Shown piece by piece: positions 2,477 to 19,918 of a DNA stretch of 20,000 bases. This DNA comes from an uncultured virus (IMG/VR IMGVR_UViG_3300047499_000023). Its lineage: Duplodnaviria > Heunggongvirae > Uroviricota > Caudoviricetes. The position numbers were made by a program, and so were the translations under genes. The notes under the pieces are model-generated. The model searched no databases and had not been told where the DNA came from. It worked only from the letters and a program-made list of their open reading frames with translations. The stretch is taken from IMG/VR virus record IMGVR_UViG_3300047499_000023; one strand, written 5' to 3'. Numbering within the stretch: position 1 is the first letter of the stretch; each line of letters begins with the position of its first letter.

Positions 2477-2910
2477 TGGATCGTCGCCGGCGGCAGGTGT
2501 TGAACGAAGCGCGTTCGTGGATCGGCACGCCCTACCATCACGGTCAGTGCCTGAAAGGCATAGGCGTCGACTGCGTCTGGATCATGATCGCGGTCTATCG
2601 AACCATCGGCGTCGTGCCGAGGAACTACTCGCCGGGCAGCTACACCCGCGACTGGTACATGCATCGCCACGAGGAGCTCTATCTCGAGGGCGTCAAGCAG
2701 TACGCTCGACCGCTGCCGATCGGCGTCCCGCCGCTGCCCGGCGATGTGGCGCTCTACAAGATCGGCCGCTGCGTCTCGCACGGCGCGATCATCGTGGACG
2801 ATGAGCACGTCATTCACGCCTACCGGAAGGACAAGAAAGTCACGATGGGGCTTCGTCGCGAGCCCAATCTCGCGAACTACTTCCACAGTTATTGGAGCCC
2901 GTTTCGATGA
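2476..2910 (+). CDS. NlpC/P60 tail-associated peptidase
   Basis: ATG at 2476 (TGATG overlap). 'ARSWIGTPYHH...GVDC' (catalytic Cys), 'PGDV', 'SHGAI...IHA'. Confidence 0.9.
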   Translation: MDRRRRQVLNEARSWIGTPYHHGQCLKGIGVDCVWIMIAVYRTIGVVPRNYSPGSYTRDWYMHRHEELYLEGVKQYARPLPIGVPPLPGDVALYKIGRCVSHGAIIVDDEHVIHAYRKDKKVTMGLRREPNLANYFHSYWSPFR

Positions 2911-5900
2911 GCGGTCTTTTCGGCAAACCGCCCGCCGCGGTCGTTCCGACGCAATTGAATTCGATCAACGTCGACCAGTCGCGCTACGGGGATCCGGTGC
3001 CGCTCGTCTACGGAGTCCAGCGCATCAAGATGACGCTGCTTTGGTATGGCGATTTCACGTCGACGGCGCAGTACAACAATTCGGGCAAAGGCGGCCACGG
3101 TCCGCCGTCGAACTATTCGTACGCCGCGAGCTGCGTGATGGGTCTTTGCGAAGGGCCGATCGCCGGCATCCTGCAGGTATGGAAGGATAAGGACCTCACG
3201 TCGCTCTCGACGGAGAACCTGACGGCGTTCTACGGTGCCGCCGGCCAAGCGCCGTGGGCGTATCTCACGGAAAACTTCCCGCTGCAGGCGGTACCGTACG
3301 ACCACACCGCCTACGTGGCGGAGGCCAATCTCGCCCTGGGCGGCTCTGCGGCGCTCCCCAATTACACTTTCGAGGTACAGGGGTTCCTGGCGCAGCCGGG
3401 CACGGCGTTCAGCTTCGTGAGCGGCCTGGCCGCGAACTCTTATCAGGGGCAGGTGGCCGGGACATCGCCGGTCCCCGACGGCATCTGGGACGTGACGTTC
3501 TCGGATCACGAATCGCGAACCTGCACGTTCGCGACGTCCGCGGGCGTGACCATCTGTTCGTGGGATTCGACGTTGGGGCTGGTCAACGCGGTCACGTCCG
3601 CGGCGATCGCCGGCGGCTACGATGCGGAGCCCTCCGCGATCCTGATCGACTATTGCACCGACGTAAATCACGGCGCCGGGTTTGGCAATCTCAATATCTC
3701 GCAGATCACCGCTCACTCGTGGAGCAATGGCGGCCCGACCTACTACGACAGCTTTAAAACGTACTGCACGGCGTACGGGCTTTTCATCTCGCCGTGGGAA
3801 GACACACAGCGCGCGGCCACCGACTTCATCAAAGACCTCCTCGAGATCGGCAACTCCAACTGCGTGATGTCGGCCGGCGTGATGAACATCGTGCCGTACG
3901 GCGATGTGCCGATCACCGGCAATGGCGTCACCTACACGCCAAACCTCGAGCCGCTGTTCTCCTTCACGGACAGCGACTACATGAAGAACAATCAGGGGAA
4001 CAACGATGACCCGGTCGTGGTCATCCGCAAGCCCCTGACGGAGACGTATAACGTCGTCCGCGTCGAATTTCTGGATCGCGGGAATTCCTACAACACCGCG
4101 CTCGCCGAATGGACCGACCCGCTCGATATCGCGGTCAACGGGATTCGCGTCATGGCGAACAAGTCCTTCCACCAGATTTGCGATGCGCGAGTCGCCGGCC
4201 AGGTCGCGGCGCTCATCGGGCAGCGGCAACTGTACGTCCGGAACACCTATCAATTCACGGTGCGCGCGGACTACTCGATCCTCGAGCCCATGGATCTCGT
4301 CTCGATCACCGACTCGAATCTCGGGATAAATGACCTCCTGGTCCGGATCACCGAGACGCAGGACGACAAGGACGACGTTTTCACGATCACGGCCGAGGAC
4401 GTGCTCGTCGGGACGGCGAGCGCGCCCAAATACAATTTCCAGTTTGCGCAAGGGTACGCCGCGAACTTCGCAACGCTCCCGTTCCTCGCGGCCGCGCCGG
4501 TGGTCTTCTCGGTCCCGGCCCCGCTGGTCGGCGCCGGCGGCGGCTACGAGCTCGCCATCGCCGTCGGCCCCGGCACCACGGTCTACGGCGGCGGCACGAA
4601 CGGTGACTGGGGCGGATGCGACGCCTATGGGTCGCTCGATGGGGTGACGTATCGCTACATCGGCCGCGTATCGGGTGCCGCCCGCTACGGGACGATCATG
4701 TCGGCGATCACCGCGACGGCGCTCTCGGTCAACCTCGAGCTCACGGCTGGCGCCATCGAGCTCGGCCTGCAAATGGAGAACGCCACCACGGCGGACTTCG
4801 CCGCCAACCGGGCGCTCCTGTATTTGGACGGGGAGATCGTCGGTTTCGAGTACGTGACCTCGATCGGCTCCGGCCAGTATGAAGTGGCGATCTCGAGGGG
4901 CCTATTCGGCACCACCGCGGTCGCGCACGCCGCCGGCGCATCCTGGGCGCGTCTCGATCAATCGATCCTGTACTTCACCTTCGATCCGGGCATGGTGGGC
5001 TCGACGCTGTACATGGAGTTTACGGCGTTCAATTCGGTCGGCCGAAACGAACAGCCGCAGAGTGAGTCGACCGTCTTCACCCATCTGATCGAGGTTCAGA
5101 ACGGCAGCCAGCTTCTGGGCGGTCCGCTGACGCTTCAAGGCACAGGCGTCGGCATCGTCGGCAATTCGGTGTTCAAGACGACGAACACTGCGGCCTGGGA
5201 TTCGGGCGCCTGGTCGTTGCAGGGGTATTCCGGCGGCGCATTCGTCACGTTCACCGCGACCGACACGGTGTCGGACGTGATGATGGGGCTGAATGCCGCG
5301 AACGGATATCAGGCGTATACGACGCTCGCCTACGCGATCTATTGCAACACCAGCGGCGAGCTCTACTGCTGGGAATCGGGCGTGCAGCACGATCTCGGCT
5401 CGACCTTCCAAGCCGGGGACGTGCTGTCGATCATCTACAACGGCGTGAATGTCGTTTACACGCAGAACGGCAATCAGCTTCGCAAGGTGAACGCGCCCGC
5501 CGGATTGACGCTTTATCTCAATTCGGACTTCTACACCTATCAGGCGAAACTCTCCGCCATTACGTTTGGGCCGTACGGCGCATCGACGCCGGTGCTTTGG
5601 GCAACTCGTGGCCTTGCGCTCGCAAGTGATTCGTACGCGTTCAAAGGCGGCGGCTCTGCTACGTGGAATAGCGACGATGCGTACAGCATCCAGTCGTACT
5701 CCACATGCAACATAGTTTTCAAAGCCAACAATATTGCGAGTCAATTGTTGGTGGGGTTTGTCGTGGCCGTGCCGGCGTCGCCCGGCTACACGACGATGTA
5801 CGGCTTCGATTTAAATTCGAACGCGATCGATGGGCAGTGGACGATATACGAACTGGGTGCCTCCACCGGGGTCACAGGGGTATACGGCACCGCCACTCGA

Positions 5901-6545
5901 TTCTCGATCACCTACGACGGCACGAATCTCGTTTACGCGGTCGACGGCAACACCGTGCGGACAAAGGCGCTTTCCGCGAGCGCGTTGTTTGCCTACCTCG
6001 ATTTTTATTCGGTTGGCGCCGGCGTCAACTCGCTCGACTTCGGCCCGGGGACCACGGTCCCGTTGATCGACTCGACCGGCATCGGCGCACAGGCGGCGAC
6101 CGAGATCATCAGCTTGGCCGTCCAGGGCCCGGTCAACGTCCCGAACGGCGCTCCCTACAGCGGCGTGTTTGCCGGTAATTCGACGGCGGTGACTTTCGTC
6201 CCGGGGTGCGAGATCGCGGTACCGGCACAGACCCAGCCGTGTCTTGCGACCCTGATCGTTTCGTTCACCGCCGAATGCGCCACGGCGCCCTCGAGCTCGG
6301 TAGACCCCTATCAGGCCTACACCACCGGCGGGTGTGATCAGGCGGGAAACGTGCAGGGCGGCGAAACGTACACCTACTTCGGCGTCTTCTCGGAGAACCC
6401 GACGCAATTCACGGTCACGCGCACGTTCTCGCTTCTCGAAAATGTCGCCTGCAATATCGGCTTGCTCGCGGCATTCGTGGCGTCGGTCGGCGTCGAGGTC
6501 ACATTCAGCAATGTCAATTCGCGCGTCGAAATCATCAAGAAATGA
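2907..6545 (+). CDS. Phage tail-tip / host-specificity protein (central fibre, about 1212 aa)
   Basis: ATG at 2907 (ATGA overlap). 'SRYGDPVPLVYG', 'GKGG', 'MGLCEGPI', 'LPNYTFEV', 'YNVVRVEFLDRGNSYN', 'LEPMDLV', 'SRGLFGT..HAAGA'. Tandem beta-rich repeats near the C-terminus. Confidence 0.9.
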   Translation: MSGLFGKPPAAVVPTQLNSINVDQSRYGDPVPLVYGVQRIKMTLLWYGDFTSTAQYNNSGKGGHGPPSNYSYAASCVMGLCEGPIAGILQVWKDKDLTSLSTENLTAFYGAAGQAPWAYLTENFPLQAVPYDHTAYVAEANLALGGSAALPNYTFEVQGFLAQPGTAFSFVSGLAANSYQGQVAGTSPVPDGIWDVTFSDHESRTCTFATSAGVTICSWDSTLGLVNAVTSAAIAGGYDAEPSAILIDYCTDVNHGAGFGNLNISQITAHSWSNGGPTYYDSFKTYCTAYGLFISPWEDTQRAATDFIKDLLEIGNSNCVMSAGVMNIVPYGDVPITGNGVTYTPNLEPLFSFTDSDYMKNNQGNNDDPVVVIRKPLTETYNVVRVEFLDRGNSYNTALAEWTDPLDIAVNGIRVMANKSFHQICDARVAGQVAALIGQRQLYVRNTYQFTVRADYSILEPMDLVSITDSNLGINDLLVRITETQDDKDDVFTITAEDVLVGTASAPKYNFQFAQGYAANFATLPFLAAAPVVFSVPAPLVGAGGGYELAIAVGPGTTVYGGGTNGDWGGCDAYGSLDGVTYRYIGRVSGAARYGTIMSAITATALSVNLELTAGAIELGLQMENATTADFAANRALLYLDGEIVGFEYVTSIGSGQYEVAISRGLFGTTAVAHAAGASWARLDQSILYFTFDPGMVGSTLYMEFTAFNSVGRNEQPQSESTVFTHLIEVQNGSQLLGGPLTLQGTGVGIVGNSVFKTTNTAAWDSGAWSLQGYSGGAFVTFTATDTVSDVMMGLNAANGYQAYTTLAYAIYCNTSGELYCWESGVQHDLGSTFQAGDVLSIIYNGVNVVYTQNGNQLRKVNAPAGLTLYLNSDFYTYQAKLSAITFGPYGASTPVLWATRGLALASDSYAFKGGGSATWNSDDAYSIQSYSTCNIVFKANNIASQLLVGFVVAVPASPGYTTMYGFDLNSNAIDGQWTIYELGASTGVTGVYGTATRFSITYDGTNLVYAVDGNTVRTKALSASALFAYLDFYSVGAGVNSLDFGPGTTVPLIDSTGIGAQAATEIISLAVQGPVNVPNGAPYSGVFAGNSTAVTFVPGCEIAVPAQTQPCLATLIVSFTAECATAPSSSVDPYQAYTTGGCDQAGNVQGGETYTYFGVFSENPTQFTVTRTFSLLENVACNIGLLAAFVASVGVEVTFSNVNSRVEIIKK

Positions 6546-6886: not shown

Positions 6887-7221
6887 AGATCGCGGCGGTT
6901 GGCATCGTGCTCGCGTTGTCGGGATGCGTCCTCGCGCCTGACTCGGTGCGGCCGGAGCTCGAGCACCTGTCGCACCTGACACAGCACGAGCCGTTCACGG
7001 ATCACCCGACCGACTACGGGGCGAACACGGTGAATCTGATCGCCCACTGGGATCTCCCGGCGCGCGCCTATCTCGAGGTCGGCGAGGGGTATGACCTGAG
7101 CCGCCACTATCCGCAGACGCGCACCGCCGGCGCGAGCGATGGCGAGATCATCGGTCCGCGCGAGGAATTTACCGCCCGTTTTGGAATTGTGATTGGCATC
7201 CCGCACAGGAGTACGAAATGA
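6883..7221 (+). CDS. Lipoprotein of unknown function
   Basis: MKIAAVGIVLALSGC: basic N-terminus, hydrophobic core and LSGC lipobox. ATGA-coupled on both sides. Confidence 0.7.
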   Translation: MKIAAVGIVLALSGCVLAPDSVRPELEHLSHLTQHEPFTDHPTDYGANTVNLIAHWDLPARAYLEVGEGYDLSRHYPQTRTAGASDGEIIGPREEFTARFGIVIGIPHRSTK

Positions 7222-9949: not shown

Positions 9950-10170
9950 CACTTGAACTTCTGATCCAACTCCTCCCGCTGATCGAAAACGGCATCACCG
10001 TCATCGGCGCCGTCATCAAGGATCTGCAGGCCTCCGGCCACGATCCGAAAGCCCCACTCCCCCTCGAGCACCAGGCGAAGATCACGGCGGCGCTCGCGCC
10101 GATCGCGCAGCCTCTCTTCGATGCGGGGAGTGGCGGCCTGGACGACCCCGACGGGCCCGAGGGCGGCTGA
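9946..10170 (+). CDS. Small hypothetical protein (74 aa)
   Basis: ATG at 9946 in an ATGA overlap, AAGGAG RBS, amphipathic N-terminal helix. Fills the gap in the operon. Confidence 0.6.
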   Translation: MTLELLIQLLPLIENGITVIGAVIKDLQASGHDPKAPLPLEHQAKITAALAPIAQPLFDAGSGGLDDPDGPEGG

Positions 10171-10171
10171 G

Positions 10172-10657
10172 ATGTTCGCGACCAGCCTTTGCCTGACCGC
10201 GCTTACGCCCGATCTTTGGTCCATCGATCAGCCGCTCACCTGGATTGGCGATGAAGGCCCGATCGTGGTGCCGAAGGGCTTCATAACGGACCTGGCTTCG
10301 ATCCCGCGCGTCCTGCGGAATCTCCCGCTGCTCGACGTGGACGGCCTTTCGCGGCGGCCGGCGGCGCTCCACGACTGGCTCTACGCCGGGTATCGGCACA
10401 AGGGCAAGGCGTTCGCCGATCAGACGCTGCGCGCCGCGCTGATCGCCGAGGGCATGACCCACGCGGGCGCCTCGATCTATTACTACGGGGTGCATTGGTT
10501 CGGCGCCGGCGGCTGGAATTTCGATGCGATGCGCCACCCGTACGTGAATGTCAATCAGGCGAATCCGACGCCGTCGAACCTTGAGAGTTTCGATTTCGTC
10601 ACCGAGGCGGACTGGCAAGCCTGGCTTGCGACAAGCCCCGAGCCCAACGAGCGATGA
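10172..10657 (+). CDS. DUF1353 family protein
   Basis: 'VPKGFITDLASIPR', 'AALHDWLY', 'ADQTLRAAL', 'YYGVHWFG'. Confidence 0.88.
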   Translation: MFATSLCLTALTPDLWSIDQPLTWIGDEGPIVVPKGFITDLASIPRVLRNLPLLDVDGLSRRPAALHDWLYAGYRHKGKAFADQTLRAALIAEGMTHAGASIYYYGVHWFGAGGWNFDAMRHPYVNVNQANPTPSNLESFDFVTEADWQAWLATSPEPNER

Positions 10658-10848
10658 GCCTCTTCGGCTGGCTGTTCCGCCGGCGCGCGAAACGACCCGA
10701 CATCCCCCCGTATCAACCGCCGCCCGTGATCGTCCGCGAACAGGCGGCGCCGAAGGACGAGGGATTGATCGTTGAAGAACATGACACGTCGGCCATGACC
10801 CAGACGGGGGTCCATCGAGCGTGGCGGAAACTCACAGGAAGGGAATAG
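10654..10848 (+). CDS. Small hypothetical protein (64 aa)
   Basis: ATGA overlap with DUF1353. Ends 3 nt before the next ATG. Confidence 0.5.
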   Translation: MSLFGWLFRRRAKRPDIPPYQPPPVIVREQAAPKDEGLIVEEHDTSAMTQTGVHRAWRKLTGRE

Positions 10849-10856
10849 CCCATGGC
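10846..10856 (+). repeat. 11-bp direct repeat TAGCCCATGGC, copy 1 (copy 2 at 11848-11858)
   Basis: Identical stop-CCC-start junction on both sides of gene 10852-11850. Confidence 0.7.
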
Positions 10857-11850
10857 TAATTCAGAAGTCCCCATTACACCGGGGACTGGCTCAGAGATCG
10901 CGGTCTACACCGATACGGGCAGCGTCAACCATCAACGCGTCGTCATCGAGACGCAGAGTGGCACGGCAGATCCGGTCTCGGTCGGCGCCAGCAACCCGCT
11001 CCCCGTCACCGGCACGGTCGGCGTCTCCGGCGTCGTCTCGGTTGCGGAGAACGTGGAGGACGGCGAGGCGTTCACTCGAGGCGTTAACGCCGCGCTGCCC
11101 GTCATGGGCGTCGCCGAAACATCCAATCCCACGCTCACCGCCAACAAAGCGGCGACGCTGTCGATGGACCTTTCCGGGAATCTCCGCACGAAGGATGCGA
11201 ACGGCGGCAACGCGGCGACCGGCGTCACCATACCCACCGGAGGCCTCGGTATCCTGGGATGGCTTTCGGGGATCTACAACAGCCTTTTCGGCGGCATCCT
11301 GGGCGTGCACAACACGACGGCGCCCACGCTCACCAACGGCCAGGTGGGTCCCATTCAGTTGGACGCCTCCGGCAACCTGATGACGAATCTGTCCGCCGGC
11401 GGCGCCGCGGCGGGCACGGCCGGCAACCCCTCGGCCGACGTGATGACCATTCAGGGTGGTCCTGGCATGACGCCGGTCCAGGTCTCGCAGCCGCTCACGA
11501 CGACGGGCGGGGCGAGCTACTCAAATGAGATCGCGCCGGCGACGCCGGCGGCGGTGGCCGTCAAGACCTCGGCCGGCAACATCTACGGCGTGACCGCGAT
11601 GAACCTCGGCACGACGCCGGTCTACATCAAATTCTGGGACACCACCACGGCGCCCACGTTGGGATCGACCGCGGCCAACTATCAATTCATGGTCCCGGGC
11701 AACACGGGCGGCGCCGGCGTCGTGATTCAGTTCAACTTCCCGCGCTCGCATGCGAATCGCATTTACTACGCGGTCACGGGCGCCATCTCGCTCACCGATG
11801 ACACGTCGATCACCGGCAGCTCCGTCGTCGTGGACGTGGCCTACAACTAG
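10852..11850 (+). CDS. Putative virion accessory/fibre-base protein, module 1 (paralogue of 15859-16386)
   Basis: N-terminus 'EVPITPGTG..IA.Y.DT....HQ...SNPLP', Thr/Gly-rich spacer, C-terminal beta domain 'VKTSAGNIYG...YIKFWD...APTLG'. Confidence 0.65.
   Translation: MANSEVPITPGTGSEIAVYTDTGSVNHQRVVIETQSGTADPVSVGASNPLPVTGTVGVSGVVSVAENVEDGEAFTRGVNAALPVMGVAETSNPTLTANKAATLSMDLSGNLRTKDANGGNAATGVTIPTGGLGILGWLSGIYNSLFGGILGVHNTTAPTLTNGQVGPIQLDASGNLMTNLSAGGAAAGTAGNPSADVMTIQGGPGMTPVQVSQPLTTTGGASYSNEIAPATPAAVAVKTSAGNIYGVTAMNLGTTPVYIKFWDTTTAPTLGSTAANYQFMVPGNTGGAGVVIQFNFPRSHANRIYYAVTGAISLTDDTSITGSSVVVDVAYN
10862..10877 (+). repeat. 16-bp direct repeat CAGAAGTCCCCATTAC, copy 1 (copy 2 at 15872-15887)
   Basis: Exact match at the 5' ends of the two paralogous module-leading genes. 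Confidence 0.8.
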
Positions 11851-11853
11851 CCC

Positions 11854-12552
11854 ATGGCGTATGCACCGATCAACGTCGGGCCCGTCGCCTCGGCGTACAA
11901 CGCTGCGCTCTCGATCACCATGCCGACGGGCTTTGCCGCGGGCAATCTTCTCCTGCTCCAGAGCCAAATTTACCAGGGGAGTGCCGCCACGCCCACGGTG
12001 AGCGGATGGACGCGCTTGTCACCCGGCGTCAATGCCAAGCAGATCGCCCTCTGGGGCAAGATCGCTGTGGGGTCGGATGCGGCGCCATCGATCAATTGGG
12101 GGAGCTCGGTCAACGTGTTCTCCTCTGCATGGGTCGCCGCCTATTCGGGCAACCCGTCGACGCTCACCGGCATCGTTCATGCGAGCGCCGATGAGCTCAA
12201 CAACAACAAGCAGGACATCGATTACCCGGCGCTTGCGATCACGCAACCGGACTGCCTTGTCATCGCCGGCGGCGCGCGCGACAAGACCTCGGCGACCGAT
12301 TCCGCGACCTTCGGCACGTTGGGCGACTTCGTCATCCGCCAGTCGAGTGTGTTGCCCGCCTCGAGCGGCAATCTCGCGGCGGTGATGAACGAGCTGATCC
12401 AAACAAGCCCGACGAGCCTCGCGGCCGTCTATCAGTCGATGTCCACCGAGGATGCGACCACGCAGCAGTTCGAATCTTTCGTGATTGCGCTCTTGCCGGC
12501 CGTGACCGCCTCGAGCAGAACGCCGTCGCTCATGACCATGGGGGCGGGATGA
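11854..12552 (+). CDS. Beta-sandwich putative minor structural protein
   Basis: 'ITMPTGFAAGNLLLL...TVSGWTRL...LWGKIAVGSD', a pattern recurrent in phage minor structural proteins. Ends in LMTMGAG. Confidence 0.55.
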   Translation: MAYAPINVGPVASAYNAALSITMPTGFAAGNLLLLQSQIYQGSAATPTVSGWTRLSPGVNAKQIALWGKIAVGSDAAPSINWGSSVNVFSSAWVAAYSGNPSTLTGIVHASADELNNNKQDIDYPALAITQPDCLVIAGGARDKTSATDSATFGTLGDFVIRQSSVLPASSGNLAAVMNELIQTSPTSLAAVYQSMSTEDATTQQFESFVIALLPAVTASSRTPSLMTMGAG

Positions 12553-12839
12553 CGCATCGATTCGGATTCCTGCGGCGGACGATCACCGCGCTCATCCTCG
12601 AGCAGAACGTCACGTTGCCCACGGCGACGCTCGGTCAGCCGTATTCGCAGAGCATCGCGTCCTACGTGACGGGCGGCCAACCGACGCTCACGTTCCGCGA
12701 GCTCATCGACGCGGGCAACGGCGGTTTCGCCATGAGCTCCGCGGGCCTCATTACCGGATCGCCTGCCGTGCCGGCGCTGCTCACGGATCCCAACGGGGAT
12801 TATTTCGTGGATCAATCAGGGGATGTCTACACCACATGA
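12549..12839 (+). CDS. Small protein with an incomplete putative Ig (He_PIG-like) domain and an acidic C-terminal peptide
   Basis: 'LPTATLGQPYSQSI...GGQP...MSSAGLITGSP' matches the first part of the Ig repeat. ATGA-coupled on both sides. Confidence 0.65.
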   Translation: MTHRFGFLRRTITALILEQNVTLPTATLGQPYSQSIASYVTGGQPTLTFRELIDAGNGGFAMSSAGLITGSPAVPALLTDPNGDYFVDQSGDVYTT

Positions 12840-14011
12840 CCGTCAAGAGACTCGTTGTTTCAGGCGTGCAAACGAGCGCCTACATCCTCGCGAATTACCC
12901 GCCGGCGTCGAACGCGGGACTGCAGGCGAGCACGAGCGACATGGACCTGATGTCGTGCGACGGCATCCGATGGAACGTCATCGGCCGCCCGCCAATTCCG
13001 CCCGGCGCGGCAATGATCGGCGCCTGCAAGAATCTCTACACCTGTTTCCCGACGGTGAATGACATCGGCAATTGGAACGGGAGTTCCAACGCAGCCGGCG
13101 CGTTCCGGCTCTACAACGGCTTCGCCCCTTATGGGTACGCGCCCGATTCGACGGCCTATACGACCGCGTCCAACGGTCAATTGCAGTTGCTCTATCAGGG
13201 CAACGGCAGCACCGGAAATGGCCTTCTGACGTGCTGGCCTTACGCGACCGGCAAGGTTTACGCGAACTACGGCATGCTGCCTTCGCCGCAAGCGGGCCGC
13301 AGTTTCCACGCGCAATGCAACGTGACCATGAGCGGCAATCCGACCGACATGTTCAACGCGATGTTCCTGCTGCCGCAGGAGAAGAACAACGAACAGGACG
13401 ACACCGACCCGGCGCAGGGCGTGTCGCAATACGAGAAGTGGGCCGAATTCGATCTCAACGAGTCGGGACTCGGGACGAATCTTAGCGGCACGTATCGCGG
13501 CGCGTATTTGCAGTGGTCGGGCAAATACAATTGGGCGCTCACCATGGCGGCCGCCTACGCGTCGGGCACCACCAGCGTTTCGTTGTCGAGCCCATGGCAA
13601 GGCGAGACGGGCGCGTGGAACACGGTGTTCCAATCGGGTGATCAGCGCACGCTGAATCTGGTGAACGGATCGGCGGGACCGTATACCTGCACGGCGCTCT
13701 CGACGACCAACACCACGACCGCGGTCACTATCGGCTACACGCGCCTGCTCGCCGAATCGACCATCAGCACCACGGCGATCGACATGACGCAGGAGCACAC
13801 GCTCGCTGCAACCTACGATGCGACGAACGAGCTCTACACGACCTGGGTCGACAACTTGATGCTCGGGCAGGTGAGCACCTACAACGCGAATTCATCGAAC
13901 ACCTTCCGCGACGCGCTGCATTACAACTGGATCTTCCAGATGGCATCGCACGGCTCCCCGTACACGCCGACGACGATGAATCTCAAGTGCTTTGGTATGT
14001 GGGTGCCGTGA
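12836..14011 (+). CDS. GH16-like glycoside hydrolase with fibre-type N-terminal segment
   Basis: 'FNAMFLLP' followed by 'WAEFDLNE' (ExDxxE, 13445-13462) and 'QEHTLAATYD...TWVDN'. N-terminal 'YPPASNAG..A.TSD....SCDGIRW'. Confidence 0.7.
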   Translation: MTVKRLVVSGVQTSAYILANYPPASNAGLQASTSDMDLMSCDGIRWNVIGRPPIPPGAAMIGACKNLYTCFPTVNDIGNWNGSSNAAGAFRLYNGFAPYGYAPDSTAYTTASNGQLQLLYQGNGSTGNGLLTCWPYATGKVYANYGMLPSPQAGRSFHAQCNVTMSGNPTDMFNAMFLLPQEKNNEQDDTDPAQGVSQYEKWAEFDLNESGLGTNLSGTYRGAYLQWSGKYNWALTMAAAYASGTTSVSLSSPWQGETGAWNTVFQSGDQRTLNLVNGSAGPYTCTALSTTNTTTAVTIGYTRLLAESTISTTAIDMTQEHTLAATYDATNELYTTWVDNLMLGQVSTYNANSSNTFRDALHYNWIFQMASHGSPYTPTTMNLKCFGMWVP

Positions 14012-15831
14012 GCGATCTGCTGACCGTCCAAGTCGAGGATGCGCGCGCATCGATCGTTCACGGACAGTTTACGATCCCGATTTCGAATCCTTTGTCGATC
14101 TCGCCGGCGCCGCTCCCGAATGCCCAGGTGGGTGTCGCTTACTCGGCGCCGCTGACGTATCTCGGCGGCACCGCGCCCTATATCGAAACGATCATCGATC
14201 AGTCGGCCGGCAATACCTGGAGCATTTCCGGCGGCAATGTCGTCGGCACGCCGACCACGGCCGGCACGTTCTACATCAACGTCCTGATCGTCGATGCGAA
14301 CGAGGTGCCGCAGAATCAGGTGCTCACGATCATCGTGGCGCCCGCCTCGAGCGGCGGCGGCGCGGCCGTGGTTCAAAAGTTCGTTCCCGGTTATTACGTG
14401 CAGACCTCCGGGCAGACCGGGCTCAACACGGCGGAACTGTCCGTTCTCGCGCCCTACATGCCCGGCACGATCAAGGGCTACGGCATCTCGTATCCGTGGA
14501 GCCTCTTTCACACGGGGCTCAACACCTTCAATTTTTCGAAATACGATTCCGATTTTGCGGCGCTCCAGGCGTCGGCGCCGGGCGCGTACTTCGTGCCGAT
14601 GATTCGCTGGTTCAAGATCACGGGCAGCATCAACGCCACGGACGTTTCGACCTATAACCCAAATGGCGATTGCGTCCCCGCTTTCATTCTGAGCAACCCA
14701 AGCACCTACGGATCGGGACCGCCGGGGAGCGAGTGGGGCGGTTGGAACGCCAACGGCTATGGCGGGTCAGCGTTCGGCTACGACGAAGCCAACATGTGGA
14801 CGCCGGCGATCTACCAGCAGTATCTCGCGTTCCACGCCGCATTCATGGCGCATGTGCGTCCGGGTCAAAGTTATACGGTCGATGAAGATCCGCTCGTGCC
14901 GATCATCTTCGATTGGACGCCGACGGATCTCAATCTGCAGGGCAACCCTTCCGGCACTACGCCCTCGAGCTTCTCGGTCACGGCCTGGAAGAATGCGTGG
15001 CTCGCGCTGACGGATCCGATGACCGGCGTGGCGGCGCAATACGACTACACCCCGGTTGCGCAGATGCCGATGTTCGGCGGCAACGGCAACGGTGGATCCG
15101 AGTCGCCATCGGACCAGGGCCTGATCGTCACGAACATGTCGGAGGGCCCGACTTCAGCGATGTCCTGCACGGACATCACCGGCCAGATTGTCGGCACGCC
15201 GAGCGATGCGTCCTACGGCCAGTGGGCCTTCATGGGCAATACCTACTCGGGATCGACGCCGGTCACGGGTGGTGGCACCGATCGACGCAAGCAGATGCTC
15301 TCGGCGCCCACGATCCAAGGCGATGACATCAACGGGCCGAGCGGTCCCTACGAGCCGGGCAGCTATCCCTCGAGCACCACCGCGCAGCTCGTCACGCTCG
15401 CGACCGCGCTCGCCAACTTTGCGACGTCCTCTTCGGGGCTGAACGCGAGCATTGTCATGATGCCGTACGCGACGGCGAAGTTTTTGAGCACCGATTTTTC
15501 GAACATCATTTTGCCGGCGATCGAAGCGGCGAACGCGGTCAATACACTGCTCCCGCTCAATTACATGAATGCGCCGGGCGGCCTTACGGTGACGGGCACG
15601 ACCTCGAGCACGGTGTCGCTCTCCTGGACGCTGCAATCCCAGTACACCGGGACCGGGCTCACTTACACGATCTATCGGAACGGCACCGCTGTCGGCACCG
15701 GGCTCACGAGCGGGACGTACACCGATACCGGGCTCGCGGCCTCGACGACCTACGTCTACAAGGTCGCGGTCGCGAATTCAAATGGCACGGGCCCGCAGAG
15801 CGCGGGCGTGTCCGGAACTACCACATCCTGA
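14008..15831 (+). CDS. Multidomain protein: partial Ig + Ig + putative glycosidase-like barrel + FN3
   Basis: GTG at 14008 (GTGA overlap). Complete Ig 'LPNAQVGVAYSAPL...GGTAPY...GTPTTAGTFYINVLIVD'. Central 'KFVPGYY...YPWSLF...FNFSKYD' region. C-terminal FN3 'APGGL.VTGTTSSTVSLSW...YTIYRNG...YTDTGLAASTTYVYKV'. Confidence 0.7.
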   Translation: MSDLLTVQVEDARASIVHGQFTIPISNPLSISPAPLPNAQVGVAYSAPLTYLGGTAPYIETIIDQSAGNTWSISGGNVVGTPTTAGTFYINVLIVDANEVPQNQVLTIIVAPASSGGGAAVVQKFVPGYYVQTSGQTGLNTAELSVLAPYMPGTIKGYGISYPWSLFHTGLNTFNFSKYDSDFAALQASAPGAYFVPMIRWFKITGSINATDVSTYNPNGDCVPAFILSNPSTYGSGPPGSEWGGWNANGYGGSAFGYDEANMWTPAIYQQYLAFHAAFMAHVRPGQSYTVDEDPLVPIIFDWTPTDLNLQGNPSGTTPSSFSVTAWKNAWLALTDPMTGVAAQYDYTPVAQMPMFGGNGNGGSESPSDQGLIVTNMSEGPTSAMSCTDITGQIVGTPSDASYGQWAFMGNTYSGSTPVTGGGTDRRKQMLSAPTIQGDDINGPSGPYEPGSYPSSTTAQLVTLATALANFATSSSGLNASIVMMPYATAKFLSTDFSNIILPAIEAANAVNTLLPLNYMNAPGGLTVTGTTSSTVSLSWTLQSQYTGTGLTYTIYRNGTAVGTGLTSGTYTDTGLAASTTYVYKVAVANSNGTGPQSAGVSGTTTS

Positions 15832-15858
15832 TTTTTACCCTGAGAGGAGATTGCGACC

Positions 15859-16386
15859 ATGGCCGGTGATACAGAAGTCCCCATTACGCCCGGAACAGGC
15901 GCCGATATTGCCGGCTATCTGGATACGGCTGGCAATGTGCATCAGAAATTCATTCTTGAGATGCAGGGCCCGACCGATCCGCAGGACCCGGTCAAGATCA
16001 ACTCATCCAATCCGCTGCCGATCACGTTGGTTCCTGGCTCCGTCGGTACGACGCGATCGCGGATCAACTCCGCGGCGACCACCAACGCGACCAACGTCAA
16101 AGCCGCGGCTGGCGATCTCTTGGCCTTCGAGCTGTCCAACCAGTCGACCGGCTATCGATACGTCAAGTTCTACGATGCTGCGACGGCGCCCACGGTCGGC
16201 ACGACCGCGGTGGCGTTCGTGATCACAATCCCGCCCGGCGGCATGGTGAGCCCGGACTATACGGCCGCCGGCGGCATTCCGTTCACCACCGGAATCTCGT
16301 ATGCCATCACGGCCGGCACGGGGTTGGATGCCGACACGACGGCGGTCGCGGCTGCCGATGTGTCGGGATTCCTGCTCACCAAATGA
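15859..16386 (+). CDS. Putative virion accessory/fibre-base protein, module 2 (short paralogue of 10852-11850)
   Basis: GAGGAG RBS. Same N-terminal motif and same C-terminal domain ('VKAAAGDL...YVKFYD...APTVG') but without the long spacer. Confidence 0.65.
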   Translation: MAGDTEVPITPGTGADIAGYLDTAGNVHQKFILEMQGPTDPQDPVKINSSNPLPITLVPGSVGTTRSRINSAATTNATNVKAAAGDLLAFELSNQSTGYRYVKFYDAATAPTVGTTAVAFVITIPPGGMVSPDYTAAGGIPFTTGISYAITAGTGLDADTTAVAAADVSGFLLTK

Positions 16387-16634
16387 GCAGCTCCTGTTTC
16401 TACGTTCTGCCGCTGCAGCCGCTATGGCCGGATCCGCTGCCGACGTTCCCCGAGAACGTCGCAGTCTCGTACCAGCTCACGGCGGTCGGCGGCGTATTGC
16501 CCTACACATTCGGCCAGAGTTCGGGCAGCCTCCCGACGGGCTTAAGCTTGAGTTCATCGGGCCTCATCACCGGAACGCCGACCGTCGCCGTCACCCTGTC
16601 TCCCGAAACCTTCACTGTCACGGATAGCTCATGA
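16383..16634 (+). CDS. Small single putative-Ig protein lacking its last strand
   Basis: 'LPTFPENVAVSYQLTAVGGVLPYTF..SSGSLPTGLSLSSSGLITGTPT...FTVTDSS*', a canonical He_PIG pattern that stops at VTDS. Confidence 0.75.
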   Translation: MSSSCFYVLPLQPLWPDPLPTFPENVAVSYQLTAVGGVLPYTFGQSSGSLPTGLSLSSSGLITGTPTVAVTLSPETFTVTDSS

Positions 16635-19108
16635 TCAAGAAATATCTCATTGCCGCGACGGCCATCGTTGTCGCCACCCTCTGCGGGATTCATGCCTGGT
16701 CGCAAGTCACGGCTTCGAAGGGCACGCACATCACCGTCAGCGGTGCATCGCTCGTGTTCAATTACACGACGTTCACCGGCTCGACGCCTGTCACGTCGAT
16801 CGTGAATGGCGGCACGGGCAACGGTGTGAGCGGCGGCGTCGTCTATATAGCCCAAGGCAACGGGCACCACCAGGGCGGCTCCGTTTGGAACAATGCCCAG
16901 GTAAACATCCAGTCGTTCACGATGAACGCGACGTTCACGCTGCCGACGTACAACGTGACGCTCACCGCGGGCAGCCCCAATATCACGCTGCCGTCGAATA
17001 ATGGATTCACGTCCACACAGACAGCGACCTTCACCGCGTCGTCCGCATCGATCGCCGCTTCGAATAATTTCGTGGCGGGCCTCCGAGTCACCTTCTCGAA
17101 TTCTGGCGGCGCGCTTCCCACGGGCATCTCGGCGGGGACGCAATACTACGTTCTCTCAACCGGGCTCACCGGCTCGACGTTTGAAATATCGCTGACGAAT
17201 GGCGGATCGGCCGTCGTCCCATCGAGCGCGGGAACCGGTACGCAGACCGTCACCTACTCCGTTGACGGCATCAAATTTGGTGGAAATTTCTCCAACGTCA
17301 CGGGGCTGACGCAGTACGGCTATTACTACATCGTGCAGATTTCCACGACGGGTGGAACGACCACGATTCAGGTGAGCTCGACCGCCGGCGGCACCCCAAT
17401 CACCCTGGGCGGGACGGGCACGGCGTCGGCGTCCATCGTTCCGATCGTGGGCGCAGGGTTCAGCGTACAAACCAGCACCAACACGACGCAAGGCGGATCC
17501 GGATATTACGGGCTTCAATTTACTGGGGACGCAAATCTATCTGGCATCGGAGGGTATGCGACTTCCGGCGGCACTCAGTACCCGCTCGGCAACAGCATCA
17601 ACATTAAGCTGGACATGGGCGCGTGCAACCAAACCGCCAACAGCTACGGGCCCGGCCAGACCTCAAACACCATTTCGCTGACGATCAACGGTGGACCGTT
17701 CAACTGCATCCAGCCGGTATTCGATCTAAACCCCTACGGCCTCGATCTTCATTCCGGCGACCTCATGTCGATCAACGTCGTTTACGACGGCAGCAATCTC
17801 GATGTCACGATCGCCGACACGGTGACAAGCGCCCAGGCGCGTTTCATCTGGCCCATGTCGAACCTAACCAGCATTGTCGGCGGCAACACGGCCTACGTGG
17901 GATTCACGTCGGGCATGATCCCGGCCGCGCAGGCCTGGGTGAGCACCTGGTCCTACTCGACGGGATACAACCCGCGTCTGTCGGCACCCTCTTTTGGGAG
18001 CGTGACGCCCGGCCTCTATTCGTCATCGCAGACCGTGACGCTGACGGCCGCCGCCGGCGCCACGATCTATTACTCGACGAACGGACTCCCGCCGACGAGC
18101 TCGTCGACGCAGTACACCGGGCCTTTCACGGTGAGTTCGACCCAAAACATCCAGGCGATCGCCGTCAAGTCGGGCTACACGACAAGCTATCCGAGCGGCG
18201 GCGTCTTTGAGATCGCATCCGGCAGCCCGCCCAACATCAATTTCCCCTCGGGATTCGCGTCGGCGGTTTCGTCCGGACAGATGGTGTTGAACGGCTACCC
18301 GTTCATCAGCGGGTCAAACCTGCAGCTCTCTCAAGCGCCTGGCGCGCAGGTGTTCAACATGGGGTCGGCCTGGTATGCCGTACCTCAGACTATCTCAACG
18401 TTCACGAGCAATTTCACTTTCTCCGCCTCGAGCCTGTTCAACAACGGCGGCGGCAGCCAGGTCGGGTTTCTTTACTGCCTGCAAAACTACTACCAGAGTC
18501 CCACGACCTACAACACGCCCCAGGATGGCGGATGGGTCACGGGCGGCCCTTCGTGGATGTTTGCGAACGCGGTCTCGCCGACCTCGTCGAGCCTGGTGAG
18601 CGGCATGGGATACGCGGCTGTCACGAACCAGGGGAGTTTGGTCGCGAATCAAACGCCGGGCCTCGGCAACAGCGTCTGCGTTGCATTCGATCTCACGGCC
18701 GGCAGCTACGGCGGCGTCGGCGAGTACAGCGGCGGCGCACCGCCCACCGGCAACACGGTCAACATGGCCTCGACGATGAACCTGTCGAACGGCGATCCGT
18801 ACTCGGTGGCCTTGAGTTACGACGGCACGACGCTCTCGCTTCTGATGACGGACACGCTCCATACCTCGAACACGTACTCGACCAGTTGGACGGTCAATAT
18901 CCCGTCGCTGGTCGGCGGCTCGACGACGGCCTATGCGGGGTTCGTGACCGGGGAGGGGTACTCGATCGCCAACATCGCCTTGTCGAACTGGACGATGTAC
19001 ATGCTGCCGGTGTTTTGCATCCCGCGCGGCCGCGGCTATCGGCGCCGGAGGCGGTCAAAACGTCGTGGGGTACAAGACGCCAGTATCCGCGGGTTCGCCC
19101 AAGGCTAA
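16631..19108 (+). CDS. Tandem L-type (legume/ConA-like) lectin protein with signal-peptide-like leader and a central chitobiase-C/FN3-associated domain
   Basis: Leader MIKKYLIAATAIVVATLCGIHAWS. Two lectin-like repeats ('GS.W...I.(S/T)FT.N.TF', 'YDG..L...D', 'VGG.TAY.GF', 'W'). Linker domain 'GLYSSSQTVTLT...GATIYYSTNG..PT.SST.YTGP...AIAVKSGY'. Confidence 0.75.
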   Translation: MIKKYLIAATAIVVATLCGIHAWSQVTASKGTHITVSGASLVFNYTTFTGSTPVTSIVNGGTGNGVSGGVVYIAQGNGHHQGGSVWNNAQVNIQSFTMNATFTLPTYNVTLTAGSPNITLPSNNGFTSTQTATFTASSASIAASNNFVAGLRVTFSNSGGALPTGISAGTQYYVLSTGLTGSTFEISLTNGGSAVVPSSAGTGTQTVTYSVDGIKFGGNFSNVTGLTQYGYYYIVQISTTGGTTTIQVSSTAGGTPITLGGTGTASASIVPIVGAGFSVQTSTNTTQGGSGYYGLQFTGDANLSGIGGYATSGGTQYPLGNSINIKLDMGACNQTANSYGPGQTSNTISLTINGGPFNCIQPVFDLNPYGLDLHSGDLMSINVVYDGSNLDVTIADTVTSAQARFIWPMSNLTSIVGGNTAYVGFTSGMIPAAQAWVSTWSYSTGYNPRLSAPSFGSVTPGLYSSSQTVTLTAAAGATIYYSTNGLPPTSSSTQYTGPFTVSSTQNIQAIAVKSGYTTSYPSGGVFEIASGSPPNINFPSGFASAVSSGQMVLNGYPFISGSNLQLSQAPGAQVFNMGSAWYAVPQTISTFTSNFTFSASSLFNNGGGSQVGFLYCLQNYYQSPTTYNTPQDGGWVTGGPSWMFANAVSPTSSSLVSGMGYAAVTNQGSLVANQTPGLGNSVCVAFDLTAGSYGGVGEYSGGAPPTGNTVNMASTMNLSNGDPYSVALSYDGTTLSLLMTDTLHTSNTYSTSWTVNIPSLVGGSTTAYAGFVTGEGYSIANIALSNWTMYMLPVFCIPRGRGYRRRRRSKRRGVQDASIRGFAQG

Positions 19109-19152: not shown

Positions 19153-19527
19153 TCATTGCTGGTTCGCGATCCCAGTATGCATGTCGACGTGGGTCGCGTT
19201 GGAGCTCGTCGACTTGAGCACGCCATTCTTGTCGAACAGCAGCACCGCCGTCTCGTTCGTCCCCTTGGCGCCGCCGGCAAAGAGCCCGACCACCGGCACA
19301 TAGCTCGCCGCGGTCGCGTGCGCCGCCGTGTGCATGTACACGTCCGACTTGGTCCCATCCGCCAAATAAGAAACGCTCGTAGGAGCCCCATACGCGGCGA
19401 TCACCTGCGCCTCCGTGGTCTCGCCCGGAACCAGGGTCGATAGCTGCGCCTGCGTGACCTTCGTCCCGCTGCTCATGCATCCCGCCATCAATCCCGCCAC
19501 CATCATTCCCGCCCATAGAGTCTTCAT
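19153..19527 (-). CDS. SmpA/OmlA (BamE)-like outer-membrane lipoprotein (moron)
   Basis: ATG at 19527 with GAGGGA RBS. MKTLWAGMMVAGLMAGC lipobox. 'LVPGETTEAQVIAAYGAP' and 'LLFDKNGVLK'. Confidence 0.75.
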   Translation of the reverse strand: MKTLWAGMMVAGLMAGCMSSGTKVTQAQLSTLVPGETTEAQVIAAYGAPTSVSYLADGTKSDVYMHTAAHATAASYVPVVGLFAGGAKGTNETAVLLFDKNGVLKSTSSNATHVDMHTGIANQQ

Positions 19528-19559
19528 CGTCGTTCCCTCGCTTGTTGTCGAAAAGCCCT

Positions 19560-19854: not shown

Positions 19855-19873
19855 TGCGCGAGAGCACGCCTCT

Positions 19874-19918
19874 CTACGAACCAGGAGGTCGGGAGTTCGA
19901 ATCTCTCCGGGCGCGCCA
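19874..19918 (+). mobile_element. Phage att core: 3' half of tRNA-Arg(ACG), anticodon loop to CCA
   Basis: CTACGAA anticodon loop, CCAGG, variable loop AGGTC, T-arm GGGAG-TTCGAAT-CTCTC, acceptor strand CGGGCGC-G-CCA. The 5' half of the tRNA is absent upstream. Confidence 0.88.

Follow-up and report, generated by a model that had tools for sequence, protein, structure and literature searches.

A 20,000-nucleotide stretch of DNA from an uncultured tailed virus (IMG/VR record IMGVR_UViG_3300047499_000023; the whole stretch is called the window here) carries a gene for an 83-residue immunoglobulin-like (Ig) protein at 16383-16634, which is followed directly by a large lectin gene starting at 16631. 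The small protein ends before the last beta-strand of its fold, strand G, and the lectin begins with a strand that resembles the missing one, placed behind a leader resembling a signal peptide. We consider it likely that the two genes form an adaptor-plus-tag cassette, docking exchangeable cargo by strand complementation. In such a cassette the small gene would yield an Ig domain without strand G, acting as a socket, and the N-terminal strand of the passenger would complete its fold in trans. The cargo behind the strand would be exchangeable, being a double lectin in the window and an unrelated 1262-residue protein in a second phage. That the pairing recurs in an unrelated phage, with another large protein, points to a reusable cargo clip.

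A small Ig family ending before strand G

An earlier reading of this DNA, made from the sequence only, had described the 83-residue open reading frame (ORF) as an Ig repeat one strand short, and this description holds. The frame is present, ends at the F-strand motif FTVTDSS named there, and scores 45.1 bits against the Pfam family He_PIG (PF05345; cut-off 24), which places it in the family by score. The match covers model positions 8-83 of 96, and positions 84-96 are absent, so that the domain is incomplete; the protein stops two residues past the Asp of strand F. An AlphaFold2 model built from 23 aligned sequences reached a pLDDT of 84.6, with the last strand at residues 76-80 and no strand in residues 1-11. 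All fold matches of this model were Ig- or cadherin-like and below Z 8, the best (Z 7.7, rmsd 3.1, 76 aligned) being with a putative alpha-galactosidase, in its N-terminal domain, followed by SraP and cadherins, and the model covered cadherin-23 EC1 over residues 1-89 of 102. A sequence search of the PDB gave weak matches only (E 0.48-0.94), and none of the cultured phages searched matched the protein at E 1e-5.

The truncation is conserved and defines a family. A profile search restricted to proteins 45-170 residues long gave 151 matches, and of the 120 short homologues listed 24, the window's protein included, carry a strand A of the form W-[PT]-[DN]-P. All 24 of these WPDP members end 2-3 residues past the last (F-strand) Asp, with a core identity of 34-92% (median 63%), and several sit on contigs of 10-82 kb, so that contig ends do not explain the truncation. 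The Trp of the signature (Trp15) is kept by every one of the 23 aligned members and occurs at that place in none of 790 ordinary repeats. On a tree of 43 rows and only 76 columns, with three rows skipped, the 24 members make up one side of a branch whose support of 92/87 lies under the starred bar. The split is thus not peculiar to this genome, since the family has 24 members and a second locus in another phage.

Ordinary He_PIG domains differ from these. They lie inside long proteins in 25/25 viral loci, and the terminal He_PIG domains of two cultured-phage tail proteins both keep strand G (2/2 checked). Two relatives of the small Ig, searched against cultured phages, retrieved mostly major tail proteins, and the top Atlas cluster, with 80 members, was a He_PIG group of 85 residues in which 53% of the members with a record are viral. 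Further family loci were sought in 25 + 6 viral and 19 genome loci, all of which held a chance match or Igs of the ordinary kind within long proteins. Of 10 viral matches to a short DNA pattern, the 7 inspected were all unrelated. A long DNA pattern of the family matched in two viral loci, L116 and L117, and in 0/5, 0/401 and 0/401 genomes; these two loci are one phage and the only other family locus found.

The small Ig gene and the lectin ORF overlap by ATGA, which on the sequence is a predicted site of translational coupling; coupled translation would provide socket and passenger in similar amounts. Since the lectin frame has a stop before its ATG and no slippery heptamer occurs in 16381-16640, the pair is two genes and not one frameshifted product. 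In the second phage an in-frame stop stands two codons before the passenger ATG. A contig of run X5, which is another sample, perhaps of the same campaign, spans 15908-16747 with zero differences. Frameshift fusion was rejected on the stop and the missing heptamer, assembly error on the X5 contig, which bridges the junction unchanged, and gene decay on the common end of the 24 members, as far as sequence can decide. One refuting case that the sequence-only reading had set for itself, a split unique to this genome through decay or an assembly error, did not materialise.

A G-like strand at the start of two passengers

A 12-position profile of strand G was built from 619 strands, which came from 128 long repeat proteins and their 715 inter-repeat segments, and was trained on ordinary He_PIG repeats of other proteins only. 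A profile search of 1.84 billion representatives, in which 150/150 listed matches were long repeat proteins, was used solely for this training. With a score of 8.9, residues 27-38 of the lectin come out on top of its 814 windows. For comparison, the training strands have a 5th percentile of 4.7, a 25th of 12.5 and a median of 16.2, and a score of 7.2 within the first 40 windows is attained by 2/478 distinct control ORFs, which were taken from viral loci and include many shadow frames. The match of the lectin strand exceeds chance. The claim that the next gene opens with the missing strand straight after its leader is borne out for the strand, which lies at residues 25-38, while cleavage after Ser24 is a placement by heuristic and by eye. 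The complete Ig of the gene at 14008, to which the truncated one had been compared, does go on to a G strand, which scores 9.2 and is the best of 596 windows.

The second phage provides another view of the pair. In locus L116 the family member P0166 lies directly after a head-tail connector (portal) gene of PF12236, a family typical of T7-like short-tailed phages, and the layout of this portal region differs from that of the window. P0166 overlaps a 1262-residue passenger gene by ATGA, and this passenger starts with a hydrophobic, signal-like leader followed by a G-like strand that scores 7.2 and ranks first of 1251 windows. The lectin and L116 strands have the motif K-x-T-H-I-[ST]-V in common and share 6/12 identities in register, which is the best of all windows of the L116 passenger, and the leaders in front of them differ in length. 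The two passengers themselves show no meaningful similarity (best E 0.022). By eye, the two DNAs are alike over the Ig gene, overlap, leader and tag, beyond which the likeness fades. Searching the Atlas with the L116 leader produced no match over 0.79. In both leaders (16679-16684 in the lectin gene, residues 11-12 in L116) the hydrophobic stretch ends in Leu-Cys, without a standard lipobox.

A fused form exists in the viral locus L081, whose protein is 41% identical to the lectin body and carries two complete He_PIG domains in front of its lectin. PF00139 is precomputed on 7/7 lectin homologues, and all seven are without leader and tag (G-profile scores all below 0), so that the lectin fold does not depend on the strand. 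The leader has a counterpart in the L116 passenger, and the lectin is the sole protein with a signal-like leader, by the heuristic, among the cluster genes at 10121-19108. A Gly-rich leader is common to 2/7 lectin homologues and three small-Ig members, and this sharing suits the idea that Gly-rich leaders may be an alternative attachment route. The six loci that a metagenome scan with the lectin gave were inspected and held no such small Ig gene, and a structure model of the full lectin was too poor for use (pLDDT 44). The 36 residues at the end of the lectin apparently come from a lost stop codon. In a separate observation, the lectin homologue P0161 is fused behind a region resembling, by eye, the body and fibronectin type III (FN3) domain of the 14008 protein; judged by eye, 14008-type and lectin modules also occur in one chain.

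Competing explanations

The adaptor proposed by the sequence-only reading stands in its sequence part, with truncation in 24/24 members and the same leader-plus-strand in a second phage, and physical docking of the two proteins is what it predicts. Several points weigh against it. Downstream neighbours have been seen for two of the 24 family members only, which gives two independent gene pairs, and the co-occurrence of adaptor and tag is not independent of descent, because the two are inherited together. The 45-170 residue limit of the family search hides any fused WPDP form that keeps strand G. Both tags lie in the lowest quarter of real G strands and carry Thr where 92% of G strands have Tyr, Leu or Phe, and it is a conjecture of ours that the invariant Trp of the family compensates for this weakness. 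Nor is the profile specific, as an internal window of the 175-residue neighbour upstream scores 10.4 and the 14008 protein also begins with a candidate G strand (5.3). The heuristic finds a signal-like leader on the plug and none on the socket, and flags 1/23 WPDP members overall. If the leader is a true signal, the partners would be separated and meet only at lysis; if it stays uncleaved, they could pair in the cytoplasm. Signal peptidase I disfavours Pro directly after the cleavage site, and the likely site in the L116 leader is doubtful, the next residue being Pro.

The alternative that survives best, and which we nevertheless hold to be unlikely, is that the small Ig is self-sufficient with six strands, as a monomer or homodimer whose Trp covers the core, and that the tag is a non-binding remnant of a fused gene. 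The confident monomer model, the Trp that ordinary repeats lack, the weakness of the tags as G strands and the existence of fused He_PIG-lectin genes are all in keeping with this. AlphaFold2, however, often gives confident models of incomplete Ig domains, and against a remnant stands the tag itself, which keeps 6/12 residues in register behind leaders of differing length and in front of unrelated passengers.

Two further explanations are each considerably less probable. The sequence-only reading had offered a self-polymerising stalk, in which each small Ig would donate its N-terminal extension to the next copy and the lectin would cap the fibre. G-like windows (score of at least 5) are indeed held by 3 of the 22 scoreable family leaders, lying 2-3 residues ahead of strand A in P0166 (7.4) and P0177 (9.0), and other G-less small Igs start with a clear G strand (P0202 19.6, P0227 17.8, P0224 15.7). 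The remaining 19/22 leaders score below 5, however, and these G-first proteins fall outside the WPDP branch. In the window protein itself the extension SSCFYVL, which had been noted as short and hydrophobic, proved not to be a G-like donor: the leader scores -18, has no strand in the model and is not conserved in the family. ATGA coupling would also fit about equal amounts rather than a many-to-one ratio. For the window's protein the stalk is unlikely. To a similarly small degree do we credit a strand donor elsewhere in the phage, such as the 14008 product, with the lectin an independent exported protein of the lysogen. The G-like start of the 14008 protein (rank 2 of 596) and the lectin's being alone in its cluster with a signal-like leader would suit this, but the start includes strand F as well, a strand not missing from the small Ig, and is better matched to the 12549 product, which by eye has strands A-E; L116, moreover, repeats the pairing with the adjacent gene. 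Least credible of all is an artefact or recoding (decay, assembly error, or a ribosomal frameshift joining both frames); frameshifts do append Ig domains to some phage proteins and the lectin's own end looks degraded, but the common end of 24/24 members, the identical X5 contig and the in-frame stops in both phages without a slippery heptamer in the window speak against it.

If the cassette is real, the small Ig would probably use its variable leader to attach to the virion or to a hub protein, perhaps the 175-residue product, and the socket and passenger together would display an adhesin. A wider picture, which we put forward only tentatively and regard as doubtful, is that soil and moss phages with various tail types carry a mobile clip that decorates virions across a membrane. 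The G-less Ig would then be cytoplasmic and ride on the particle, while the passenger would be exported and fold in the periplasm; signal peptidase would unmask the plug strand, and the two halves would not join until lysis. By this route an adhesin or enzyme of any kind could, once placed behind the tag, become a virion appendage.

Genomic setting and known systems

The window represents the end part of a tailed phage, with a Phage-tail_3 gene at 2892-6545 and a weak phage-lysozyme match at 7218 in the Pfam scan of its proteins. An adhesin-like gene cluster spans 10852 to 19108, downstream of the tail and lysis genes (Table 1). Ten DNA runs labelled moss metagenome carry the stretch in whole or part, six of them at least half of it, and no RNA run is among the listed carriers.

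Table 1. Coordinates of the small Ig gene, its passenger and the gene upstream
Feature	Position	Strand	Basis or remark
175-aa protein, family unknown, head of module	15859..16386	+	stop overlaps small-Ig start (ATGA)
83-aa stand-alone He_PIG domain, strands A-F, without strand G	16383..16634	+	Pfam, AlphaFold2, family alignment
10-residue small-Ig leader	16383..16412	+	variable in family (9-86 residues); pLDDT 67; no strand assigned
Family signature L-W-P-D-P-L-P in strand A	16422..16442	+	alignment
Lectin-frame stop (16625-16627), then ATGA stop/start overlap	16625..16634	+	stop one codon before lectin ATG; same layout in L116
Signal-peptide-like leader, lectin residues 1-24	16631..16702	+	hydrophobicity heuristic positive; cleavage after Ser24 by eye
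G-like candidate donor strand (plug), lectin residues 27-38, motif K-x-T-H-I-[ST]-V	16709..16744	+	profile score 8.9
Passenger body: two legume-lectin-like modules flanking a CHB_HEX_C/Fn3_assoc domain	16751..18997	+	Pfam PF13290, PF13287; weak PF03388
36-residue lectin extension	18998..19108	+	extends past each of the 7 homologues; identical letters in run X5

The 175-residue protein is a paralogue of the 10852-11850 product (50% over the first 62 residues), and each of the two heads one run of coupled adhesin-like genes; neither has a Pfam or PHROG family. Relatives of the 175-residue protein occur in 45 viral loci, none of which (0/45) gives a tblastn match to the small Ig at E 1e-4. We infer that it is perhaps the anchor of the small Ig. 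At the far end of the window, a BamE-like lipoprotein gene on the minus strand (19153-19545; Pfam PF04355 just over the cut-off) is likely a lysogenic-conversion gene. Judged by eye, letters 19872-19918 look like a tRNA gene's 3' half, of the sort present at prophage attachment sites, and a tRNA at the window end was confirmed by neither ARAGORN nor Rfam.

Other incomplete Igs were seen alongside the WPDP family. The window may hold a second split Ig, with strands A-E and a short acidic hairpin motif (by eye) in the 12549-12839 product and strands F-G at the start of the 14008 product (14008-14090; G score 5.3, rank 2 of 596), the 12836 gene lying between the halves. No viral relative of the 14008 protein was found. 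P0200, P0202, P0204, P0224, P0227 and P0270 are small He_PIG proteins without a final G strand, several of which have a strong G strand (scores up to 19.6) at the N-terminus, directly ahead of strand A, two of them behind a signal-like leader. Such G-first, G-less small Igs outside the WPDP branch are the better candidates for pilin-like, self-polymerising fibres. In P0213, P0214, P0244, P0264 and P0278, small Igs with a strand-like C-terminal tail, a G-like strand lies near the N-terminus, mostly directly behind a signal-like leader and a Gln, and these proteins are possible chain links.

In the chaperone-usher pili (Fim, Pap, Caf1), an Ig fold lacking strand G is completed by the N-terminal strand of another chain. 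The window's pair resembles this arrangement in that the socket lacks strand G and a strand exposed on the other chain after removal of its leader would complete it; such a supply by an N-terminal extension fits the sequence in 2/2 known pairs. The differences are that the socket has a predicted He_PIG/cadherin-like fold, is without an export signal and, where every pilus shaft subunit combines groove and donor extension, without a donor extension of its own, and that the polarity is reversed, the adhesin being the donor. A Pfam scan of 15 proteins of the window, which is part of a 64.6-kb contig, found no chaperone or usher family. By this comparison the pair is read as working like donor-strand complementation and not as a chaperone-usher subunit.

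A closer precedent in phages is Tuc2009 of Lactococcus, in which a hairpin of BppU completes the beta-sheet of a titin-like domain of the carbohydrate-binding BppA (PMC4742702). There too a carbohydrate-binding accessory protein is docked by strands of one chain completing the Ig-like beta-sandwich of another, but with the polarity reversed: the incomplete domain belongs to the carbohydrate-binding protein, which receives a C-terminal hairpin from the scaffold (PMC4742702). The window lectin would instead give one N-terminal strand, from behind a signal-like leader, to a separate 83-residue He_PIG socket, and a passenger of the window type differs in being exchangeable. BppA is described as auxiliary and non-essential (PMC9692632). 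The position of the pairs also varies, as judged from gene position only: the window pair follows the tail and lysis genes and the L116 pair comes right after the portal gene.

Other phage Ig domains are more distant. He_PIG domains of phage tails and bacterial surfaces belong to the same family as the small Ig, above the curated cut-off, and terminate major tail proteins of cultured actinophages; unlike the window's separate, G-less gene, those of tails keep strand G and lie within long proteins. Small Ig-like ORFs downstream of tail spikes have been described as whole domains related to lambda gpJ (PMC12309495). They are alike in being an Ig-like domain with its own small gene beside a receptor-binding gene, and differ in being whole; the word 'strand' is absent from the main text (PMC12309495). 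Frameshift-appended phage Ig domains differ from both junctions, since a slippery site with an open alternative frame is met neither at the window junction nor in L116.

The remark in the sequence-only reading that such docking was not known for phage Ig appendages therefore has to be trimmed, BppU-BppA being a precedent (PMC4742702), while for this family the remark stands: G-less He_PIG adaptors with tagged, signal-bearing, swappable passengers were not found described in the full-text literature, with most subscription papers outside reach. Within these sources the principle of strand complementation is already known, and what appears new is this family, its swappable cargo and the export signal on one partner only. 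If the reading is true, short, truncated-looking 'putative Ig' genes would be sockets by design, and the large genes with signals that occur in structural modules of phages could be read as plug-in cargo. It would offer a simple route by which adhesins are swapped between unrelated phages, and perhaps a way to place periplasm-folded proteins on virions. The 83-residue domain and its 12-residue tag would then be a compact natural tag-and-catcher pair.

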